Source: a virus (lineage: Duplodnaviria > Heunggongvirae > Uroviricota > Caudoviricetes). Taken from it: a stretch of 4,977 bases of DNA. Position 1 is the stretch's first letter. Each line of letters opens with the position of its first letter. The stretch is taken from IMG/VR virus record IMGVR_UViG_2698536372_000026; one strand, given 5' to 3'. Shown here piece after piece: positions 1-4,977 of the stretch. Under the pieces are notes generated by a model that made no database searches, had not been told where the DNA came from, and was given only the letters and a program-made list of their open reading frames with translations. The translations under genes were made by a program, and so were the position numbers.

Positions 1-1647
1 AGCACGGCCTGCCCGGACTGGGCAGAGCGCCTGAAAAAGGGGCTGTCGATTATTCCGGCTCCGATTTATCCGGAGCAGGCCGCACATGCCCTGGCGATTT
101 TTAAACAACTGCGGATTGTGGATGCACCGGGCAGCCCGACGTTCGGGGAGTCCTGCGCACAGTGGGTGTTTGACCTGGTGGCGGCCCTGTTTGGCTCCTA
201 CGATGCGCAGACCGGTGTACGCCATATCAAGGAAGTTTTTATCCTTATCCCCAAGAAAAACAGCAAGTCCACGCTGGCTGCCGGGATCATGATGACGGCG
301 CTGTTACTGAACTGGCGGCAGGCGGCGGGCTACACCATTCTGGCCCCGACCGTGGAGGTGGCGGCTAACGCCTTCAACCCTGCCAGGGATATGGTACGAC
401 GGGACGATGATCTGGATGACCTCTGTCAGGTGCAGACACATATCCGGACCATCACCCACAGGGTGACGGACACCACCCTTAAGGTGGTGGCTGCCGATCC
501 GAATACGGTATCCGGTATCAAGTCCGTGGGGACGCTGATTGATGAACTGTGGTTATTTGGCAAGCAGTACAAAGCGGAGGACATGCTACGTGAAGCCATA
601 GGCGGCCTTGCCTCCCGCCCGGAAGGGTTTGTGGTGTATACGACCACCCAGTCGAATGAGCCGCCAGCCGGGGTGTTCAGACAGAAACTGCAGTACGCCC
701 GGGATGTCCGTGACGGCAAAATTCATGATCCGCATTTTCTGCCGGTGATATTTGAACACCCTCCTGAAATGGTGGAAAGCGGGGCTAACCTGCTGATGGA
801 AAACCTCGCCATGGTCAATCCGAATCTCGGCTATTCAGTGGATGAGGCCTTTCTGTACCGGGAGTACCGTAAAGCCCGGGAAGCCGGTGAAGAGACATTC
901 CGGGGGTTCATGTCAAAACACGCCAATGTGGAAATTGGTCTTGCCCTGCGCTCTGACCGCTGGGCGGGGGCTGATTTCTGGGAAGAGCAGGGCCGTTGTA
1001 TCAGCCTGGACGATATCCTGCGTCGTGCTGATGTGGTGACGGTGGGGATTGACGGCGGAGGGCTGGATGATCTGCTGGGGATGTATGTGACTGGGCGTGA
1101 CCGGGAGACCCGCGAATGGCTGGGCTGGGGCCATGCCTGGGCGCATGAAACCGCGGTGGTCCGACGGAAGAGCGAGGCGTCCCGGTTTCAGGATCTTGTT
1201 GCCTGTGGAGATATGACCATTGTCCGGCGTGTCGGGGATGACACGGCGGAAGTGGCGGAATATGTGCGTCGCATTCATGAGGCTGAGTTACTGGACCATA
1301 TCGGTATTGACCCGTCAGGGGTGGGGCAGATTCTGGATTCACTGGCGGAAGCCGGGATCCCCGACGGAATTGTGGTGGGGATAAGCCAGGGCTGGAAACT
1401 GGGCGGGGCCATTAAAACCACCGAGCGCAAACTGGCTGAAGGGGTGCTGGTGCATGGTGACCAGCCCCTGATGGCCTGGTGTGTCGGCAATGCCCGGGTG
1501 GAGCCTAAAGGTAACGCCATTCTTATCACCAAACAGGCCAGTGGACGGGGAAAAATTGACCCGCTGATGGCGCTGTTCAATGCGGTCTCCCTGATGTCCC
1601 TTAACCCGGAACCGAAAAAGAAAGAATATGCGGTTTTTTTCATATAA
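1..1647 (+). CDS. Phage terminase large subunit (TerL), 5'-partial; ATPase plus nuclease domains
   Basis: Frame 1 is open from base 1 with no stop, so the gene starts upstream; the GTG at 118 in the ORF track is not the true start. Deviant Walker A 'PKKNSKST' at about 250-273. Walker B-like 'GTLIDE' at about 535-546. C-terminal RNase-H-like nuclease motifs 'VVTVGIDGGG' (about 1033-1062) and 'HIGIDPSG'. Stop TAA at 1645-1647. Family assignment is by motif recognition only. Confidence 0.85.
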   Translation, partial: STACPDWAERLKKGLSIIPAPIYPEQAAHALAIFKQLRIVDAPGSPTFGESCAQWVFDLVAALFGSYDAQTGVRHIKEVFILIPKKNSKSTLAAGIMMTALLLNWRQAAGYTILAPTVEVAANAFNPARDMVRRDDDLDDLCQVQTHIRTITHRVTDTTLKVVAADPNTVSGIKSVGTLIDELWLFGKQYKAEDMLREAIGGLASRPEGFVVYTTTQSNEPPAGVFRQKLQYARDVRDGKIHDPHFLPVIFEHPPEMVESGANLLMENLAMVNPNLGYSVDEAFLYREYRKAREAGEETFRGFMSKHANVEIGLALRSDRWAGADFWEEQGRCISLDDILRRADVVTVGIDGGGLDDLLGMYVTGRDRETREWLGWGHAWAHETAVVRRKSEASRFQDLVACGDMTIVRRVGDDTAEVAEYVRRIHEAELLDHIGIDPSGVGQILDSLAEAGIPDGIVVGISQGWKLGGAIKTTERKLAEGVLVHGDQPLMAWCVGNARVEPKGNAILITKQASGRGKIDPLMALFNAVSLMSLNPEPKKKEYAVFFI

Positions 1648-1672
1648 CCCTGTTCACACTGTAACCATCACG

Positions 1673-1697
1673 AACCGCTCCGGCGGTTTTTTTATTT
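1673..1697 (+). terminator. Candidate intrinsic terminator or attenuator between terL and the protease-capsid gene
   Basis: 6-bp stem aaccgc (1673-1678) / gcggtt (1683-1688) with loop tccg, followed by a T-run (ttttt a tttt, 1689-1698). The stem is short, so this would be weak or leaky at best. Confidence 0.3.
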
Positions 1698-1699
1698 TC

Positions 1700-1705
1700 A
1701 GGAGG
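1700..1705 (+). promoter_or_regulatory. Shine-Dalgarno AGGAGG for the GTG start at 1711
   Basis: AGGAGG lies 5 nt upstream of GTG 1711, which is the first start codon of the long frame-1 ORF. Confidence 0.6.
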
Positions 1706-1710
1706 CTGAT

Positions 1711-3462
1711 GTGACTCTTAAACGGGCCTGTTCCCTGCTGACGGTGAAATCCTTCAGTGAGGATGAACGGGTGATCACCGGGATTGCGTCAACGCCTTCT
1801 CCGGATCGGGATGGTGACATCCTGGAGCCGGAGGGCGCGGAGTTTGGCAGTGCGATCCCGTTTCTCTGGCAGCATGACCATTCCCGCCCGGTGGGGCAGT
1901 GTACGGTACGCCGGGTCAGCGAAGGGCTGGAAATCACGGCAACACTGGTGAAGCCCGTACCGGATATGCCGTCGCAACTGGCTGCCCGGCTGGATGAGGT
2001 CTGGGCGGCCATTAAGACCGGGCTGGTCAGGGGGCTGTCCGTGGGCTTCCGTCCCCATGAATACACCTTTCTGGACGGAGGCGGACTGCATTTTCTGCGC
2101 TGGGAACTGATGGAGGTGTCTGCCGTCACCGTGCCCGCGAATGCGGAATGCACCATCCGGACCATTAAATCTTACGACCGCCCGTTTTCTGCCGCGTCCG
2201 GCAACCGGAAACCGGTGGTGAAAATCGCATCTTCTGCCGGCGCTGCGGCACAGTCAACAACCGTTTTTCATAAGGAAAAGACCATAATGAATATTGGCGA
2301 ACAGATTAAAAGTTTTGAAAACAAGCGTGCAGCGCTGGCAGCCTCCCTTGAGGAGGTCATGACCAAAGCCGCAGAGGAAGGGCGCACGCTGGATGTGGAG
2401 GAGGAAGAGCATTACGACAACACCGCAGCGGAAATCCGTCAGGTGGATGCGCACCTGAAGCGCCTGCGTGAACTGGAAGCCGGTAAGGCCGCCACGGCGC
2501 AGCCGGTGAAACAGGCCGGTAACGGGAATGTGGCCGCGGTGGCTTCTGCGCCGGTGATCCGTGTGGAGCAGAAACTGGATAAGGGGATTGGCTTCGCCCG
2601 CTTTGCCAAATCGCTGGCTGCGGCTAAAGGCGTCCGATCTGAAGCCCTGGAAGTGGCCCGTCGTCAGTATCCGGATGACAGTCGTCTGCACCATGTTCTG
2701 AAATCGGCGGTGGGGGCAGGAACCACCACGGACCCGCAGTGGGCAGGCAGCCTGTCTGAATACCAGGAATATGCGCAGGACTTTATTGATTACCTGCGTC
2801 CGCAGACCATTATCGGGCGATTTGGTCAGGGCGGGATCCCTGCACTTCGTCAGGTGCCGTTCAATATCCGTGTGCACGCCCAGGTGTCCGGCGGTGCTGC
2901 CGGCTGGGTGGGTGAGGGTAAGGCAAAACCCCTGACGAAGTTTGATTTTGAATCCATCACCTTCAGTCATGCGAAAGTGTCGGCCATTGCGGTACTGACG
3001 GAAGAATTGATCCGTTTTTCCAGTCCGGCTGCTGATGCACTGGTCCGTAATGCGCTGGCGGAAGCGGTGGTGGCGCGTCTGGACACAGACTTTGTGGACC
3101 CGAAAAAAGCGGCGGTGGCGGATGTCTCCCCGGCGTCCATCACCCATGATGTGAAGGGCACGGCATCAACCGGTAACCCGGATGCGGATGCCGAGGCCGC
3201 GTTTGGCCAGTTTGTGACGGCAAATCTGCAGCCCACCGGTGCGGTCTGGCTGATGTCCAGCACCAATGCCCTGGCGCTGTCCATGCGTAAAAATGCGCTG
3301 GGGCAGAAGGAATATCCGGACATGACCCTGCTGGGCGGGACCTTCCAGGGGCTGCCGGTGATTGTCTCCCAGTATGTATGCCGCGTCCGGCAACCGGAAA
3401 CCGGTGGTGAAAATCGCATCTTCTGCCGGCGCTTCGGCACAGTCAATAACCTCTTTTCATAA
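1711..3462 (+). CDS. Fusion ORF: HK97-family prohead protease domain, coiled-coil scaffold (delta-like) segment and HK97-fold major capsid protein; C-terminus replaced by out-of-frame read-through at the duplication junction
   Basis: 583-aa ORF. The N-terminal ~155 aa carry prohead-protease motifs: 'WQHDHS' (His55/His57, nt 1873-1881), 'GLSVGF' (Ser110, nt 2038-2040) and 'ELMEVSAVTVPANAE'. Residues ~193-260 are charged and helical (EQIKSFENKRAALAASLEE...EEEEHYD...LKRLRELEAGKA), typical of a scaffold or delta domain. The remainder is a capsid body that is nearly identical to the downstream capsid gene. The last 28 aa (CRVRQPETGGENRIFCRRFGTVNNLFS) come from reading copy 2 of the repeat in the wrong frame. 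Stop TAA at 3460-3462. Confidence 0.85.
   Translation: MTLKRACSLLTVKSFSEDERVITGIASTPSPDRDGDILEPEGAEFGSAIPFLWQHDHSRPVGQCTVRRVSEGLEITATLVKPVPDMPSQLAARLDEVWAAIKTGLVRGLSVGFRPHEYTFLDGGGLHFLRWELMEVSAVTVPANAECTIRTIKSYDRPFSAASGNRKPVVKIASSAGAAAQSTTVFHKEKTIMNIGEQIKSFENKRAALAASLEEVMTKAAEEGRTLDVEEEEHYDNTAAEIRQVDAHLKRLRELEAGKAATAQPVKQAGNGNVAAVASAPVIRVEQKLDKGIGFARFAKSLAAAKGVRSEALEVARRQYPDDSRLHHVLKSAVGAGTTTDPQWAGSLSEYQEYAQDFIDYLRPQTIIGRFGQGGIPALRQVPFNIRVHAQVSGGAAGWVGEGKAKPLTKFDFESITFSHAKVSAIAVLTEELIRFSSPAADALVRNALAEAVVARLDTDFVDPKKAAVADVSPASITHDVKGTASTGNPDADAEAAFGQFVTANLQPTGAVWLMSSTNALALSMRKNALGQKEYPDMTLLGGTFQGLPVIVSQYVCRVRQPETGGENRIFCRRFGTVNNLFS
2190..3378 (+). repeat. Tandem direct repeat, copy 1 (1189 bp): linker, scaffold and capsid coding segment
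   Basis: Aligns base for base with 3379..4567 at a constant offset of 1189, with no indels seen. Hand count gives about 57 mismatches, i.e. about 95% identity. Confidence 0.9.
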
Positions 3463-4567
3463 GGAAAAGTCAGCAATGAATACTGGTGAACAGATTAAAA
3501 GTTTTGAAAACAAGCGTGCGGCGCTGGCAGCCTCCCTTGAGGAGATCATGAACAAAGCCGCAGAGGAAGGCCGCACACTGGATGTGGAAGAGGAAGAGCA
3601 CTACGACAACACCGCAGCGGAAATCCGTCAGGTGGATGCGCACCTGAAGCGTCTGCGTGAACTGGAAACCAGTAAGGCCGCCACGGCACAGCCGGTGAAA
3701 CAGGCCGGTAACGGGAATGTGGCCACGGTGGCTTCAGCGCCGGTGATCCGTGTTGAGCAGAAACTGGATAAGGGGATTGGCTTCGCCCGCTTTGCCAAAT
3801 CGCTGGCTGCGGCTAAAGGCGTCCGATCTGAAGCCCTGGAAGTGGCCCGTCGTCAGTATCCGGATGACAGTCGTCTGCATCATGTCCTGAAATCGGCAGT
3901 GGGCGCGGGGACCACCACGGATCCGCAGTGGGCAGGCAGCCTGTCTGAATATCAGGAATACGCACAGGACTTTATTGATTACCTGCGTCCGCAGACCATT
4001 ATCGGGCGATTTGGTCAGGGCGGGATCCCTGCACTTCGTCAGGTGCCGTTCAATATCCGCGTGCATGCCCAGGTGTCCGGTGGTGCTGCCGGCTGGGTGG
4101 GGGAGGGTAAGGCCAGACCCCTGACGAAGTTTGATTTTGAATCCATCACCTTCAGTCATGCGAAAGTGTCGGCCATTGCGGTACTGACGGAAGAATTGAT
4201 CCGTTTTTCCAGTCCGGCTGCTGATGCACTGGTCCGTAATGCGCTGGCGGAAGCGGTGGTGGCGCGTCTGGATACAGACTTTGTGGACCCGAAAAAAGCC
4301 GCAGTGGCAGATGTCTCCCCGGCGTCCATCACCCATGATGTGAAGGGCACGGCATCAACCGGTAACCCGGATGCGGATGCAGAGGCGGCGTTTGGACAGT
4401 TTGTGGCAGCAAACCTGCAGCCCACCGGTGCGGTCTGGCTGATGTCCAGCACCAATGCCCTGGCACTGTCCATGCGTAAAAATGCGCTGGGTCAGAAGGA
4501 ATACCCGGACATGACCCTGCTGGGTGGCTCCTTCCAGGGGCTGCCGGTGATTGTCTCCCAGTACGTG
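3379..4567 (+). repeat. Tandem direct repeat, copy 2 (1189 bp)
   Basis: Starts immediately after copy 1 with no spacer. Junction sequence is cagtatgta|tgccgcgtcc. The flanks diverge from the copies at 2189 vs 3378 and at 3378 vs 4567. Confidence 0.9.
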
Positions 4568-4678
4568 GGTGACCAGCTGGTGCTGGTGAATGCCCCGGAT
4601 ATTTATCTGGCTGATGACGGCGGTGTGGCGGTGGCGGTGATCACCGGAGTGAACTACGGCAGTGCGTCCGGCGGCTGA
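3476..4678 (+). CDS. Major capsid protein, HK97 fold, with N-terminal coiled-coil scaffold or delta-like segment (complete copy with native C-terminus)
   Basis: ATG at 3476 is preceded by AAGGA (3461-3465) at 10-nt spacing and sits just after the upstream stop at 3462. The frame is open further upstream, so TTG 3362 or ATG 3374 are alternative starts (the ORF track shows 3362..4678). About 97% aa identity to residues 193-555 of the upstream fusion ORF. Native C-terminus ...SQYVGDQLVLVNAPDIYLADDGGVAVAVITGVNYGSASGG. Stop TGA at 4676-4678. Confidence 0.8.
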   Translation: MNTGEQIKSFENKRAALAASLEEIMNKAAEEGRTLDVEEEEHYDNTAAEIRQVDAHLKRLRELETSKAATAQPVKQAGNGNVATVASAPVIRVEQKLDKGIGFARFAKSLAAAKGVRSEALEVARRQYPDDSRLHHVLKSAVGAGTTTDPQWAGSLSEYQEYAQDFIDYLRPQTIIGRFGQGGIPALRQVPFNIRVHAQVSGGAAGWVGEGKARPLTKFDFESITFSHAKVSAIAVLTEELIRFSSPAADALVRNALAEAVVARLDTDFVDPKKAAVADVSPASITHDVKGTASTGNPDADAEAAFGQFVAANLQPTGAVWLMSSTNALALSMRKNALGQKEYPDMTLLGGSFQGLPVIVSQYVGDQLVLVNAPDIYLADDGGVAVAVITGVNYGSASGG

Positions 4679-4684
4679 GTCTGA

Positions 4685-4692
4685 TAAGGAGG
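4685..4692 (+). promoter_or_regulatory. Strong Shine-Dalgarno (TAAGGAGG) downstream of the capsid stop
   Basis: taaggagg at 4685-4692. It is about 30 nt from the ATG at 4723, too far for a direct RBS unless the intervening hairpin folds. Confidence 0.45.
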
Positions 4693-4693
4693 A

Positions 4694-4713
4694 CGGGAGG
4701 CGTGCGCCTCCCG
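4694..4713 (+). promoter_or_regulatory. Perfect 9-bp GC-rich hairpin between the capsid gene and the next ORF
   Basis: cgggaggcg (4694-4702) / cgcctcccg (4705-4713) are exact reverse complements around the loop 'tg'. No U-tract follows (taacaggtt), so this is not a classical intrinsic terminator. Confidence 0.5.
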
Positions 4714-4722
4714 TAACAGGTT

Positions 4723-4944
4723 ATGGCAAAGATCCGATATCTGCAGGGCACGCATGATGCCCGGGCCGGGGATATCCGTGATGTGGCACAGCCGTGTGCG
4801 GAGGTGCTGGTTCGCCTGGGAAAGGCGGAGTACATCACGGTGCGACGTCCGGCAGGTCAGAAAAAGAAACGTGATGCGGAGCATGGCGAATGTGGAACCT
4901 TTTACGGCGAACCCGAAAAAACCAGAAATCAGGACGTGACGTAA
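4723..4944 (+). CDS. Hypothetical small protein (73 aa) downstream of the capsid gene; possibly head-associated
   Basis: ATG 4723 to TAA 4942-4944. Third codon positions are G/C-rich like the neighbouring genes. Position directly after the capsid gene fits a small head-completion or connector-type protein, but I recognise no motif. The overlapping frame-2 ORF 4754..4939 is Arg-rich and less plausible. Confidence 0.45.
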   Translation: MAKIRYLQGTHDARAGDIRDVAQPCAEVLVRLGKAEYITVRRPAGQKKKRDAEHGECGTFYGEPEKTRNQDVT

Positions 4945-4977
4945 GAGAGGCGGGCTGGACCAGCCTGTTTCAGGCGG

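Follow-up and report, generated by a model that had tools for sequence, protein, structure and literature searches.

A conserved candidate internal start in the fused prohead protease-capsid gene of long-tailed Stx-type prophages, and an apparently rearranged copy of this gene in a viral contig

The stretch of DNA analyzed here (4,977 nt of the virus record IMGVR_UViG_2698536372_000026 from IMG/VR, Caudoviricetes; hereafter the window) corresponds to the head-morphogenesis block in a lambdoid prophage of E. coli, one of the long-tailed Shiga toxin (Stx) phage type. Its central open reading frame (ORF; 1711-3462, plus strand, 583 amino acids, GTG start) encodes a prohead protease, a scaffold and a major capsid protein in one frame without a stop codon. 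At the border between protease and scaffold, this frame contains a Shine-Dalgarno (SD) motif followed by an in-frame ATG (Met193). The start codon is conserved in relatives, is preceded there by an SD motif in nearly all cases, and lies in an open mRNA context. We therefore favour, as the probable explanation, that the natural gene (645 amino acids when intact) gives two nested products, i.e., a full-length protease-scaffold-capsid protein and a scaffold-capsid protein started at Met193, and that the copy of the gene in this window is damaged. The ORF is organized as follows.

1700-1713, plus strand: upstream start region of the full-length product, with the ribosome-binding site AGGAGG at 1700-1705 and GTG at 1711, read from the sequence; relatives have GGAGG and ATG at the equivalent place
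1711-2175, plus strand: S78 (HK97-type) prohead serine protease domain, residues 1-155 (Pfam PF04586; His55 and Ser110)
2176-2286, plus strand: linker, residues 156-192; DRxxxAASG and AGA motifs are conserved, and the stretch after them is hypervariable and rich in indels (alignment of close homologues)
2271-2289, plus strand: internal ribosome-binding site UAAGGA (2271-2276), 10-nt spacer and in-frame ATG at 2287 (Met193), the proposed scaffold-capsid start (conservation, AT-rich context, split relatives)
2287-2580, plus strand: scaffold (delta-like) domain, roughly residues 193-290, its end being approximate (AlphaFold2 helices; conserved MNIAEQIKSFE...)
2581-3377, plus strand: HK97-type major capsid domain, copy 1, ending after residue 555 (..SQYV) (Pfam Phage_capsid)

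The initial annotation, made from the letters alone, had proposed such a fusion, assigned its parts to the S78 protease and HK97-type capsid families, and placed an AAGGA motif at 2272-2276 before the ATG at 2287, with a second such pair at 3461-3465 and 3476. All these coordinates agree with the sequence, and profile searches (Pfam, TIGR01554, phrog_617) bear out both family assignments. Pfam PF04586 (Peptidase_S78) matches residues 48-152 (E 2e-8) with 35 bits against a gathering score of 21, which places the protease in the S78 family, while the narrower equivalog TIGR01543 (residues 48-154) stays below its cut-off (46.7 vs 59). His55 (in WQHD) and Ser110 (in GLSxGF), the catalytic residues suggested earlier, are invariant in both close and distant alignments, and are candidates by this conservation rather than by a structural match to the HK97 residues. 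No ClpP-family match to the protease was found in Pfam, NCBIfam or PHROGs searches. For the capsid part, Pfam Phage_capsid matches residues 386-556 (E 1.8e-10) and TIGR01554 residues 204-555; the two capsid copies present in the window (see below) score 41-45 bits with the former (threshold 24.2) and 75-79 with the latter (27.5). The PHROGs profile phrog_617, 'major head protein' (626 positions), covers residues 1-556 (E 3e-232). A sequence search of the PDB gave one weak match, the phage major capsid protein 9d9w (E 0.002), and no protease structure among its matches. An AlphaFold2 (AF2) model of the intact 645-residue protein, built from an 18-sequence alignment, has a mean predicted local distance difference test score (pLDDT) of 40 and was used solely for disorder in the linker (residues 138-193, pLDDT 23-29) and for two long scaffold helices predicted at residues 195-222 and 229-261; only in the scaffold stretch does the score reach 72-79.

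The fusion is uninterrupted in the window and kept in relatives. It is annotated as one coding sequence in E. coli EH2252 (592 residues), in E. coli strain 06_3235 (645 residues) and in phage 2851 (645 residues), and it is intact in >1,200 E. coli genomes. Furthermore, S78-plus-capsid proteins of ~645 residues with 71-76% identity occur in Salmonella, Enterobacter, Klebsiella, Serratia, Pantoea, Hafnia, Kosakonia and other Enterobacterales. Sampling of species-representative genomes and IMG/VR contigs yielded 90 fused full-length ORFs, down to 33% identity, from alpha-, beta- and gammaproteobacterial genomes and from viral contigs. Three domains in an uninterrupted frame conserved in relatives, a feature of known fused protease-scaffold-capsid genes, are found here. 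Judged from these sequences, the fusion is real and old; it is already annotated (phage 2851, phrog_617) and is not new as such.

An internal ribosome-binding site with an in-frame start codon inside a longer gene is one characteristic of nested head genes, and both elements are present at 2271-2289. The initial annotation had suggested that they start a protease-free scaffold-capsid protein. The main alternative is that all subunits are made from the upstream start and process themselves after assembly, the internal SD motif and Met193 being a relic of a separate capsid gene or a need of the protein itself (a linker end rich in K, E and G, and a scaffold helix that begins with a hydrophobic residue). 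We consider this unlikely in view of the following. Met193 is invariant among close homologues, although nowhere in the protein are variation and indels as pronounced as in the 12-15 residues that precede it. The first scaffold residue is encoded by a start codon in each of the 90 fused ORFs from 26 deep clusters (85 ATG, 4 GTG, 1 TTG; consensus of the scaffold start M-N/K-I/T-A-E-Q-I), so that ATG is replaced only by the alternative bacterial start codons GTG and TTG, never by a codon for Ile or by CTG for Leu.

The SD motif was scored as a duplex with the 3' tail of 16S rRNA at positions -18 to -4, with a threshold of -4.3 kcal/mol and with all codons of the same genes as background. A duplex at or below this threshold precedes the internal start in 84 of the 90 fused ORFs, against 17.7% of the background; a duplex of -10 kcal/mol or stronger (GGAGG) is found at 38% of internal starts and at 0.6% of background positions. 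When the sequences are clustered at 60% identity, 24 of the 26 clusters have the SD-start pair (binomial p = 2e-16 against the 17.7% background). The signal is local (93% at the start vs 4-14% at other linker positions and downstream) and is therefore not explained by the K/E/G-rich composition of the linker. It also persists although it lies in the hypervariable, indel-bearing linker and although the residues encoding it change (KE, KG, QG, TG, QEGA, PEEGD, LGGIK, RRNN and ERKSK, with 74 distinct hexapeptides among the 90 ORFs). For example, in a third E. coli allele HEGKTV (GAGGGAAAG) replaces HKEKTI of the window (AAGGAAAAG), yet GAGGGA is retained. Where the SD-encoding dipeptide of the resampled loci (see below) contains Gly, its codon is always GGA, compared with a gene-wide GGA use of 2-32%.

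The mRNA context of the site is likewise unusual. It is the most AT-rich 60-nt stretch of the ORF (GC content 0.28-0.33 vs 0.59) and the least structured one (predicted folding -2 to -6 vs a mean of -17 kcal/mol). Of the 90 loci, 61% have a GC content at the site within the lowest tenth of the windows of the same gene, and in 42% the structure predicted for the site ranks in the weakest tenth. A consensus scan revealed no sigma-70-like promoter in the window, so a second product would arise by internal translation initiation rather than from a separate transcript; a separate internal promoter of the kind known for herpesvirus UL26.5 was rejected on the same ground. Another candidate, a -1 frameshift at A AAA AAG, a run that some Enterobacter-type relatives have in the linker, was also rejected, as this site is in the wrong frame and is absent from most loci. 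This A6G run, similar to a dnaX-type slippery heptamer, lies just before the internal SD motif in the linkers of some Enterobacter/Kluyvera relatives (L004 and L005; accAAAAAAGgaaac), and is not conserved.

Relatives in which the two genes are separate point to the same codon. The protease ORF ends at about 200 residues in two Snodgrassella genomes and in 17 of the 97 viral loci that could be used, and these split forms are scattered among the fused ones. In ~16 split loci the capsid gene begins at the homologous Met with a similar SD motif in front of it, as expected if the internal codon can serve as a start. Five of them (L046, L048, L049, L052 and L053) have both ORFs in the same frame, divided by nothing other than an in-frame TGA or TAA located 18-39 nt before the ATG. 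Read-through of this single stop would remake the fusion at a low level, which may be another way of dosing the protease.

Several observations weigh against internal initiation or weaken the case for it. Synonymous resampling of the five SD codons is only mildly improbable per sequence (p 0.03-0.76, median 0.14) and thus not significant when taken alone; part of the SD signal could reflect conservation of a K/Q-E/G dipeptide at the protein level. The case therefore rests on the invariance of the start codon, the positional specificity of the SD motif and its variable coding. The upstream start has the stronger SD motif (about -9 vs -6 kcal/mol for the internal one), so that SD strength alone does not predict an excess of the short product. 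A clear SD motif is missing in 6 of the 90 fused loci, and, as fusions repeatedly arise from or revert to split genes, some of the SD motifs could be young relics, as the single-product alternative holds. The AF2 model is poor, with pLDDT below 35 in the capsid part, and the domain borders given for that part are not structural facts. Finally, searches of the literature found neither expression nor protein data on either of the two products for any family member, and turned up nothing relevant on internal initiation in protease-capsid fusions or on virion proteomics of this Stx phage type. A paper on a CBASS (cyclic oligonucleotide-based antiphage signalling system) 'prohead protease fusion protein' was set aside, since it concerns a protease-scaffold protein, a different architecture. 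Taken together, internal initiation at Met193 appears well supported by the comparative data, and the earlier suggestion gains strong backing from the retained start codons, the frequent SD motif and the split relatives.

That the internal motif is instead a translational pause, giving the protease time to fold before the scaffold emerges, is very improbable: the motif does lie exactly between two domains in a linker that is unstructured in the low-quality AF2 model, but a pause explains neither the invariant start codon 5-10 nt downstream nor the use of the same site as the true gene start in split relatives, and, for the most part, pausing at SD motifs within ORFs has been put down to an artefact of profiling.

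For the natural gene, which long-tailed lambdoid prophages of the Stx type (phage 2851/Pankowvirus type) carry as one late gene, we propose the following scheme. The intact product would begin with an S78 protease, continue through a disordered linker and a helical, delta-like scaffold, and end in a major capsid protein of the HK97 fold; one mRNA would most likely give rise to two nested products. Initiation at the upstream site (AGGAGG-N5-GTG, 1711) would yield the full protease-scaffold-capsid protein, which could co-assemble as a capsid subunit and in this way bring its protease domain into the prohead. Ribosomes starting at the internal site (UAAGGA-N10-ATG, 2287) would make the scaffold-capsid protein, the main structural subunit. 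Once the shell is assembled, the protease would excise itself along with the linker and the scaffold. Use of the internal site, the ratio of the two products and the cleavages are what we infer here; in particular, by analogy with lambda C/Nu3 and herpesvirus UL26/UL26.5, the relative use of the two initiation sites may set the protease-to-capsid ratio and thereby the protease dose. If used, the internal start would explain how about 400 proteases per head are avoided although the protease is welded to the capsid protein.

On balance, we lean towards extending this scheme to the widespread family of S78/HK97-capsid fusions, including those of long-tailed Stx phages. Such genes would be nested gene pairs in which the capsid protein comes mainly from the internal start and the full-length protein is a minor 'delivery' form locking the protease dose to the shell; a single stop codon in the linker would toggle between split and fused forms with little change in the products. 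It would also be the first case in which the short nested product is the capsid protein and not just a scaffold. The literature searched seems to hold no description of a conserved nested start for fusions of the S78 type. If the scheme is true, two products would come from thousands of prophage genes that now carry just the name 'major capsid protein' or 'prohead protease', and a simple evolutionary route would connect HK97-like split genes with fused ones. Such a mechanism will hardly surprise specialists in phage assembly, yet it has strong comparative support, is widespread and is relevant to annotation.

The same gene is present in the phage 2851-type Stx phages (Pankowvirus; Stx2c, Stx1a, YYZ-2008, JLK-2012; phrog_617), with 97-99% nucleotide identity, the same neighbours (TerS, TerL, a small ORF and a long portal gene) and one annotated fused coding sequence; no internal start is marked in these annotations. 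Compared with them, the window adds a private, chimeric tandem duplication of 1189 nt, and it shares a 159-nt deletion with the EH2252 allele. In phage HK97, protease and capsid protein are products of separate genes, the protease being recruited non-covalently, whereas here the dividing stop is missing. HK97 gp4 and gp5 belong to the same protease family (Pfam S78) and to the same capsid family with an N-terminally fused scaffold (TIGR01554), and the HK97 layout, a separate protease gene followed by a delta-plus-capsid gene, is exactly that of the split relatives. The NCBIfam family NF045541, 'prohead protease/major capsid protein fusion protein', has a similar architecture, but similarity is local (residues 48-287, E 9e-15) and, with 54 bits against a cut-off of 525, the protein falls outside this family.

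Nested in-frame head-assembly genes are known from phage Mu (I/Z) and from herpesviruses (UL26/UL26.5), UL26.5 having its own promoter, in contrast to the window with no promoter-like site. Together with lambda C/Nu3, these systems have in common a long protease product and a shorter, more abundant C-terminal product in one frame, which deliver the protease at a set dose. The part shared by the two products is only the scaffold in all of them, whereas here it would be the scaffold and the major capsid protein. The arrangement of lambda C/Nu3 as nested in-frame head genes is mentioned in a passage of PMC8508860, which also describes a fused gene with a ClpP-like protease for gp5 of Pseudomonas phage MD8. 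For Salmonella phage Gifsy-2, a fusion of protease and coat genes is stated in a passage of PMC12315714, and a tripartite capsid gene is also cited in PMC8538268. The Gifsy-2 and MD8 genes resemble the gene studied here in combining protease, scaffold and HK97-fold capsid protein in one gene of a lambdoid temperate phage; they differ in having a ClpP-like protease instead of S78, and there is no detectable sequence relation. The work on the tripartite gene cited in both papers is that of Effantin and co-workers (2010), who reportedly found a ClpP-like protease in Gifsy-2. Thus, both precedents invoked by the initial annotation, Gifsy-2 and lambda C/Nu3, exist in the literature; both involve a ClpP-like protease and not S78.

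The copy of the gene in the window departs from the natural one, as it contains the tandem duplication mentioned above. The corresponding features are the following.

2190-3378, plus strand: tandem duplication, unit 1 (period 1189 nt, 58 mismatches, no indels, 95.1% identity)
3379-4567, plus strand: tandem duplication, unit 2 (same comparison)
2871-3964, plus strand: allele-B insert, a circular permutation consisting of B[2871-3377], A (3378) and B[2190-2775] (comparison with the 06_3235 and EH2252 prophages)
3378-3462, plus strand: out-of-frame tail of ORF 1, 28 codons running through the duplicated linker, its stop TAA (3460-3462) overlapping the SD motif of copy 2 (from the sequence)
3460-3478, plus strand: second internal ribosome-binding site (UAAGGA, 3460-3465) and ATG at 3476 (allele B sequence)
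3476-4678, plus strand: scaffold-capsid ORF, copy 2, 400 residues, with the 159-nt in-frame deletion of allele A near 4626/4627 (from the sequence; Pfam Phage_capsid)

As 1189 is not a multiple of three, ORF 1 loses the capsid frame after residue 555 (..SQYV), and copy 1 lacks about 90 C-terminal residues of the intact protein. The reading frame 1711-3462 described in the initial annotation is thus real, but its 3' end (3378-3462) is out-of-frame sequence and the natural protein has 645 residues. Likewise, the SD motif and ATG at 3461-3465 and 3476, taken there as conservation of the internal start in a second copy, are present, but they are merely allele B of the same gene on the duplication. 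Positions 1-2870 and 3965-4977 of the window are identical (0 mismatches) to the EH2252 prophage (allele A), and for positions 2871-3377 and 3379-3964 the perfect match (0 mismatches) is another prophage, from strain 06_3235 (allele B); the base at 3378, an untemplated A at the junction, matches neither. The A/B crossovers lie within 2776-2870 (left) and 3965-4059 (right), i.e., both switches fall in the same 95-nt identical interval, and formally a single homologous crossover with a circularised fragment of B would produce the permuted layout of the insert.

The two-copy arrangement may, however, be an artefact of assembly or of chimeric reads that mixed co-resident alleles A and B, the true locus being a single allele-A gene of 592 residues; we rate this as a serious contender that falls just short of an even chance. 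A search for the duplication junction in 5,426 complete E. coli genomes, in viral contigs of IMG/VR, in the species genomes of GTDB and in metagenomes from JGI gave no match; the only E. coli record covering both junction halves (H61) has them 296 nt apart and so differs in its arrangement. All of the flanking sequence is allele A and all of the 1189-nt insert is allele B (100% in each case), the two alleles do occur together in the same genomes (strains 06_3235 and EH2252), and the untemplated base at the junction also fits an artefact. Conversely, the junction joins non-homologous sequence, for which a graph assembler needs spanning reads. Furthermore, the sequence switches between A and B only twice, each time within the same 95-nt identical interval although several longer identical stretches exist, which fits a single crossover and not random bubble traversal. 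Other rearranged versions exist in public E. coli data as well, among them an in-frame duplication. One sequence alone cannot decide whether the duplication exists in real DNA, and this counts against the part of our interpretation that concerns the window.

Independent of the duplication is the 159-nt in-frame deletion between GTGGCGGTGG repeats near 4626/4627 (window ~4612-4645), which is found in allele A and copy 2 and is common to EH2252-type strains. Lost through this deletion are 53 residues of the capsid core (AVDMSREASLEM...RRRTA) that are almost invariant and correspond to Pfam capsid positions ~229-279. Accordingly, the Phage_capsid profile is matched over its whole length by neither copy: copy 1 reaches positions 38-213 of 280 and copy 2 positions 38-228 of 280, while intact relatives reach 279. 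The two products that the initial annotation suggested for copy 1 could not give a working capsid in this window, as copy 1 is cut at residue 555 and continues with 28 out-of-frame residues, and copy 2 lacks the 53 core residues. Since neither copy has a complete capsid domain, the locus is probably unable to build heads, judging from its sequence, or the sequence is a misassembly. As a consequence of the duplication, the rearranged locus mimics the split layout: protease, scaffold and truncated capsid come first, followed by a stop overlapping the SD motif and then by scaffold and capsid. The end of ORF 1 and 'copy 2' both stem from the duplication, which is private to this sequence and possibly artefactual, in a prophage undergoing decay.

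The defective allele with the deletion is seemingly carried by many genomes of Shiga toxin-producing E. coli (record span 3788 vs 3947 nt). Many other damaged versions of the gene, frameshifts and deletions included, are present in public E. coli data (proteins P0002, P0003, P0004, P0007 and P0009). In P0002 and P0003 the gene is fused to the C-terminus of the portal or to a tail-like protein, and P0004 has an in-frame duplication of 52 residues that contains the internal SD motif and ATG. This head gene is a frequent site of prophage decay or misassembly. For Stx phages, damage of the capsid gene (duplication, 53-residue deletion) helps to judge whether a toxin-associated prophage still forms particles.

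The window as a whole matches >1,250 complete E. coli records with 95-99% identity and 93 phage records, including phage 2851 (Pankowvirus), Stx2c-, Stx1a- and Stx2a-converting phages, YYZ-2008 and JLK-2012. The gene order in relatives, according to the annotation of the EH2252 prophage and a second relative, is TerS, TerL, the long gene, a 73-residue ORF and an 859-residue portal; the long gene is labelled 'phage major capsid protein' or 'major head protein/prohead protease'. The remaining features of the window are as follows.

1-1647, plus strand: terminase large subunit gene, its first ~15 nt preceding the window (Pfam TerL_ATPase and TerL_nuclease; terL in two annotated relatives)
1672-1699, plus strand: putative terminator-like hairpin (GAACCGC-TCCG-GCGGTTT, 1672-1689) and T-run (consensus scan)
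4723-4944, plus strand: conserved hypothetical gene, 73 residues (phrog_829, E 4e-39; annotated in the EH2252 prophage)
4890-4977, plus strand: start of the portal gene (859 residues in relatives), which exits the window (annotation mapped from two relatives; phrog_2271)

The terminator-like hairpin and T-run are located between the terL stop and the ribosome-binding site of the head gene, where they might act in attenuation, mRNA processing or mRNA stability. The order of the head genes is unusual, since the portal gene comes after the capsid gene rather than ahead of the protease (EH2252 locus 6534-9280). The portal is also unusually long, and its gene overlaps the 3' end of the 73-residue ORF by 55 nt.

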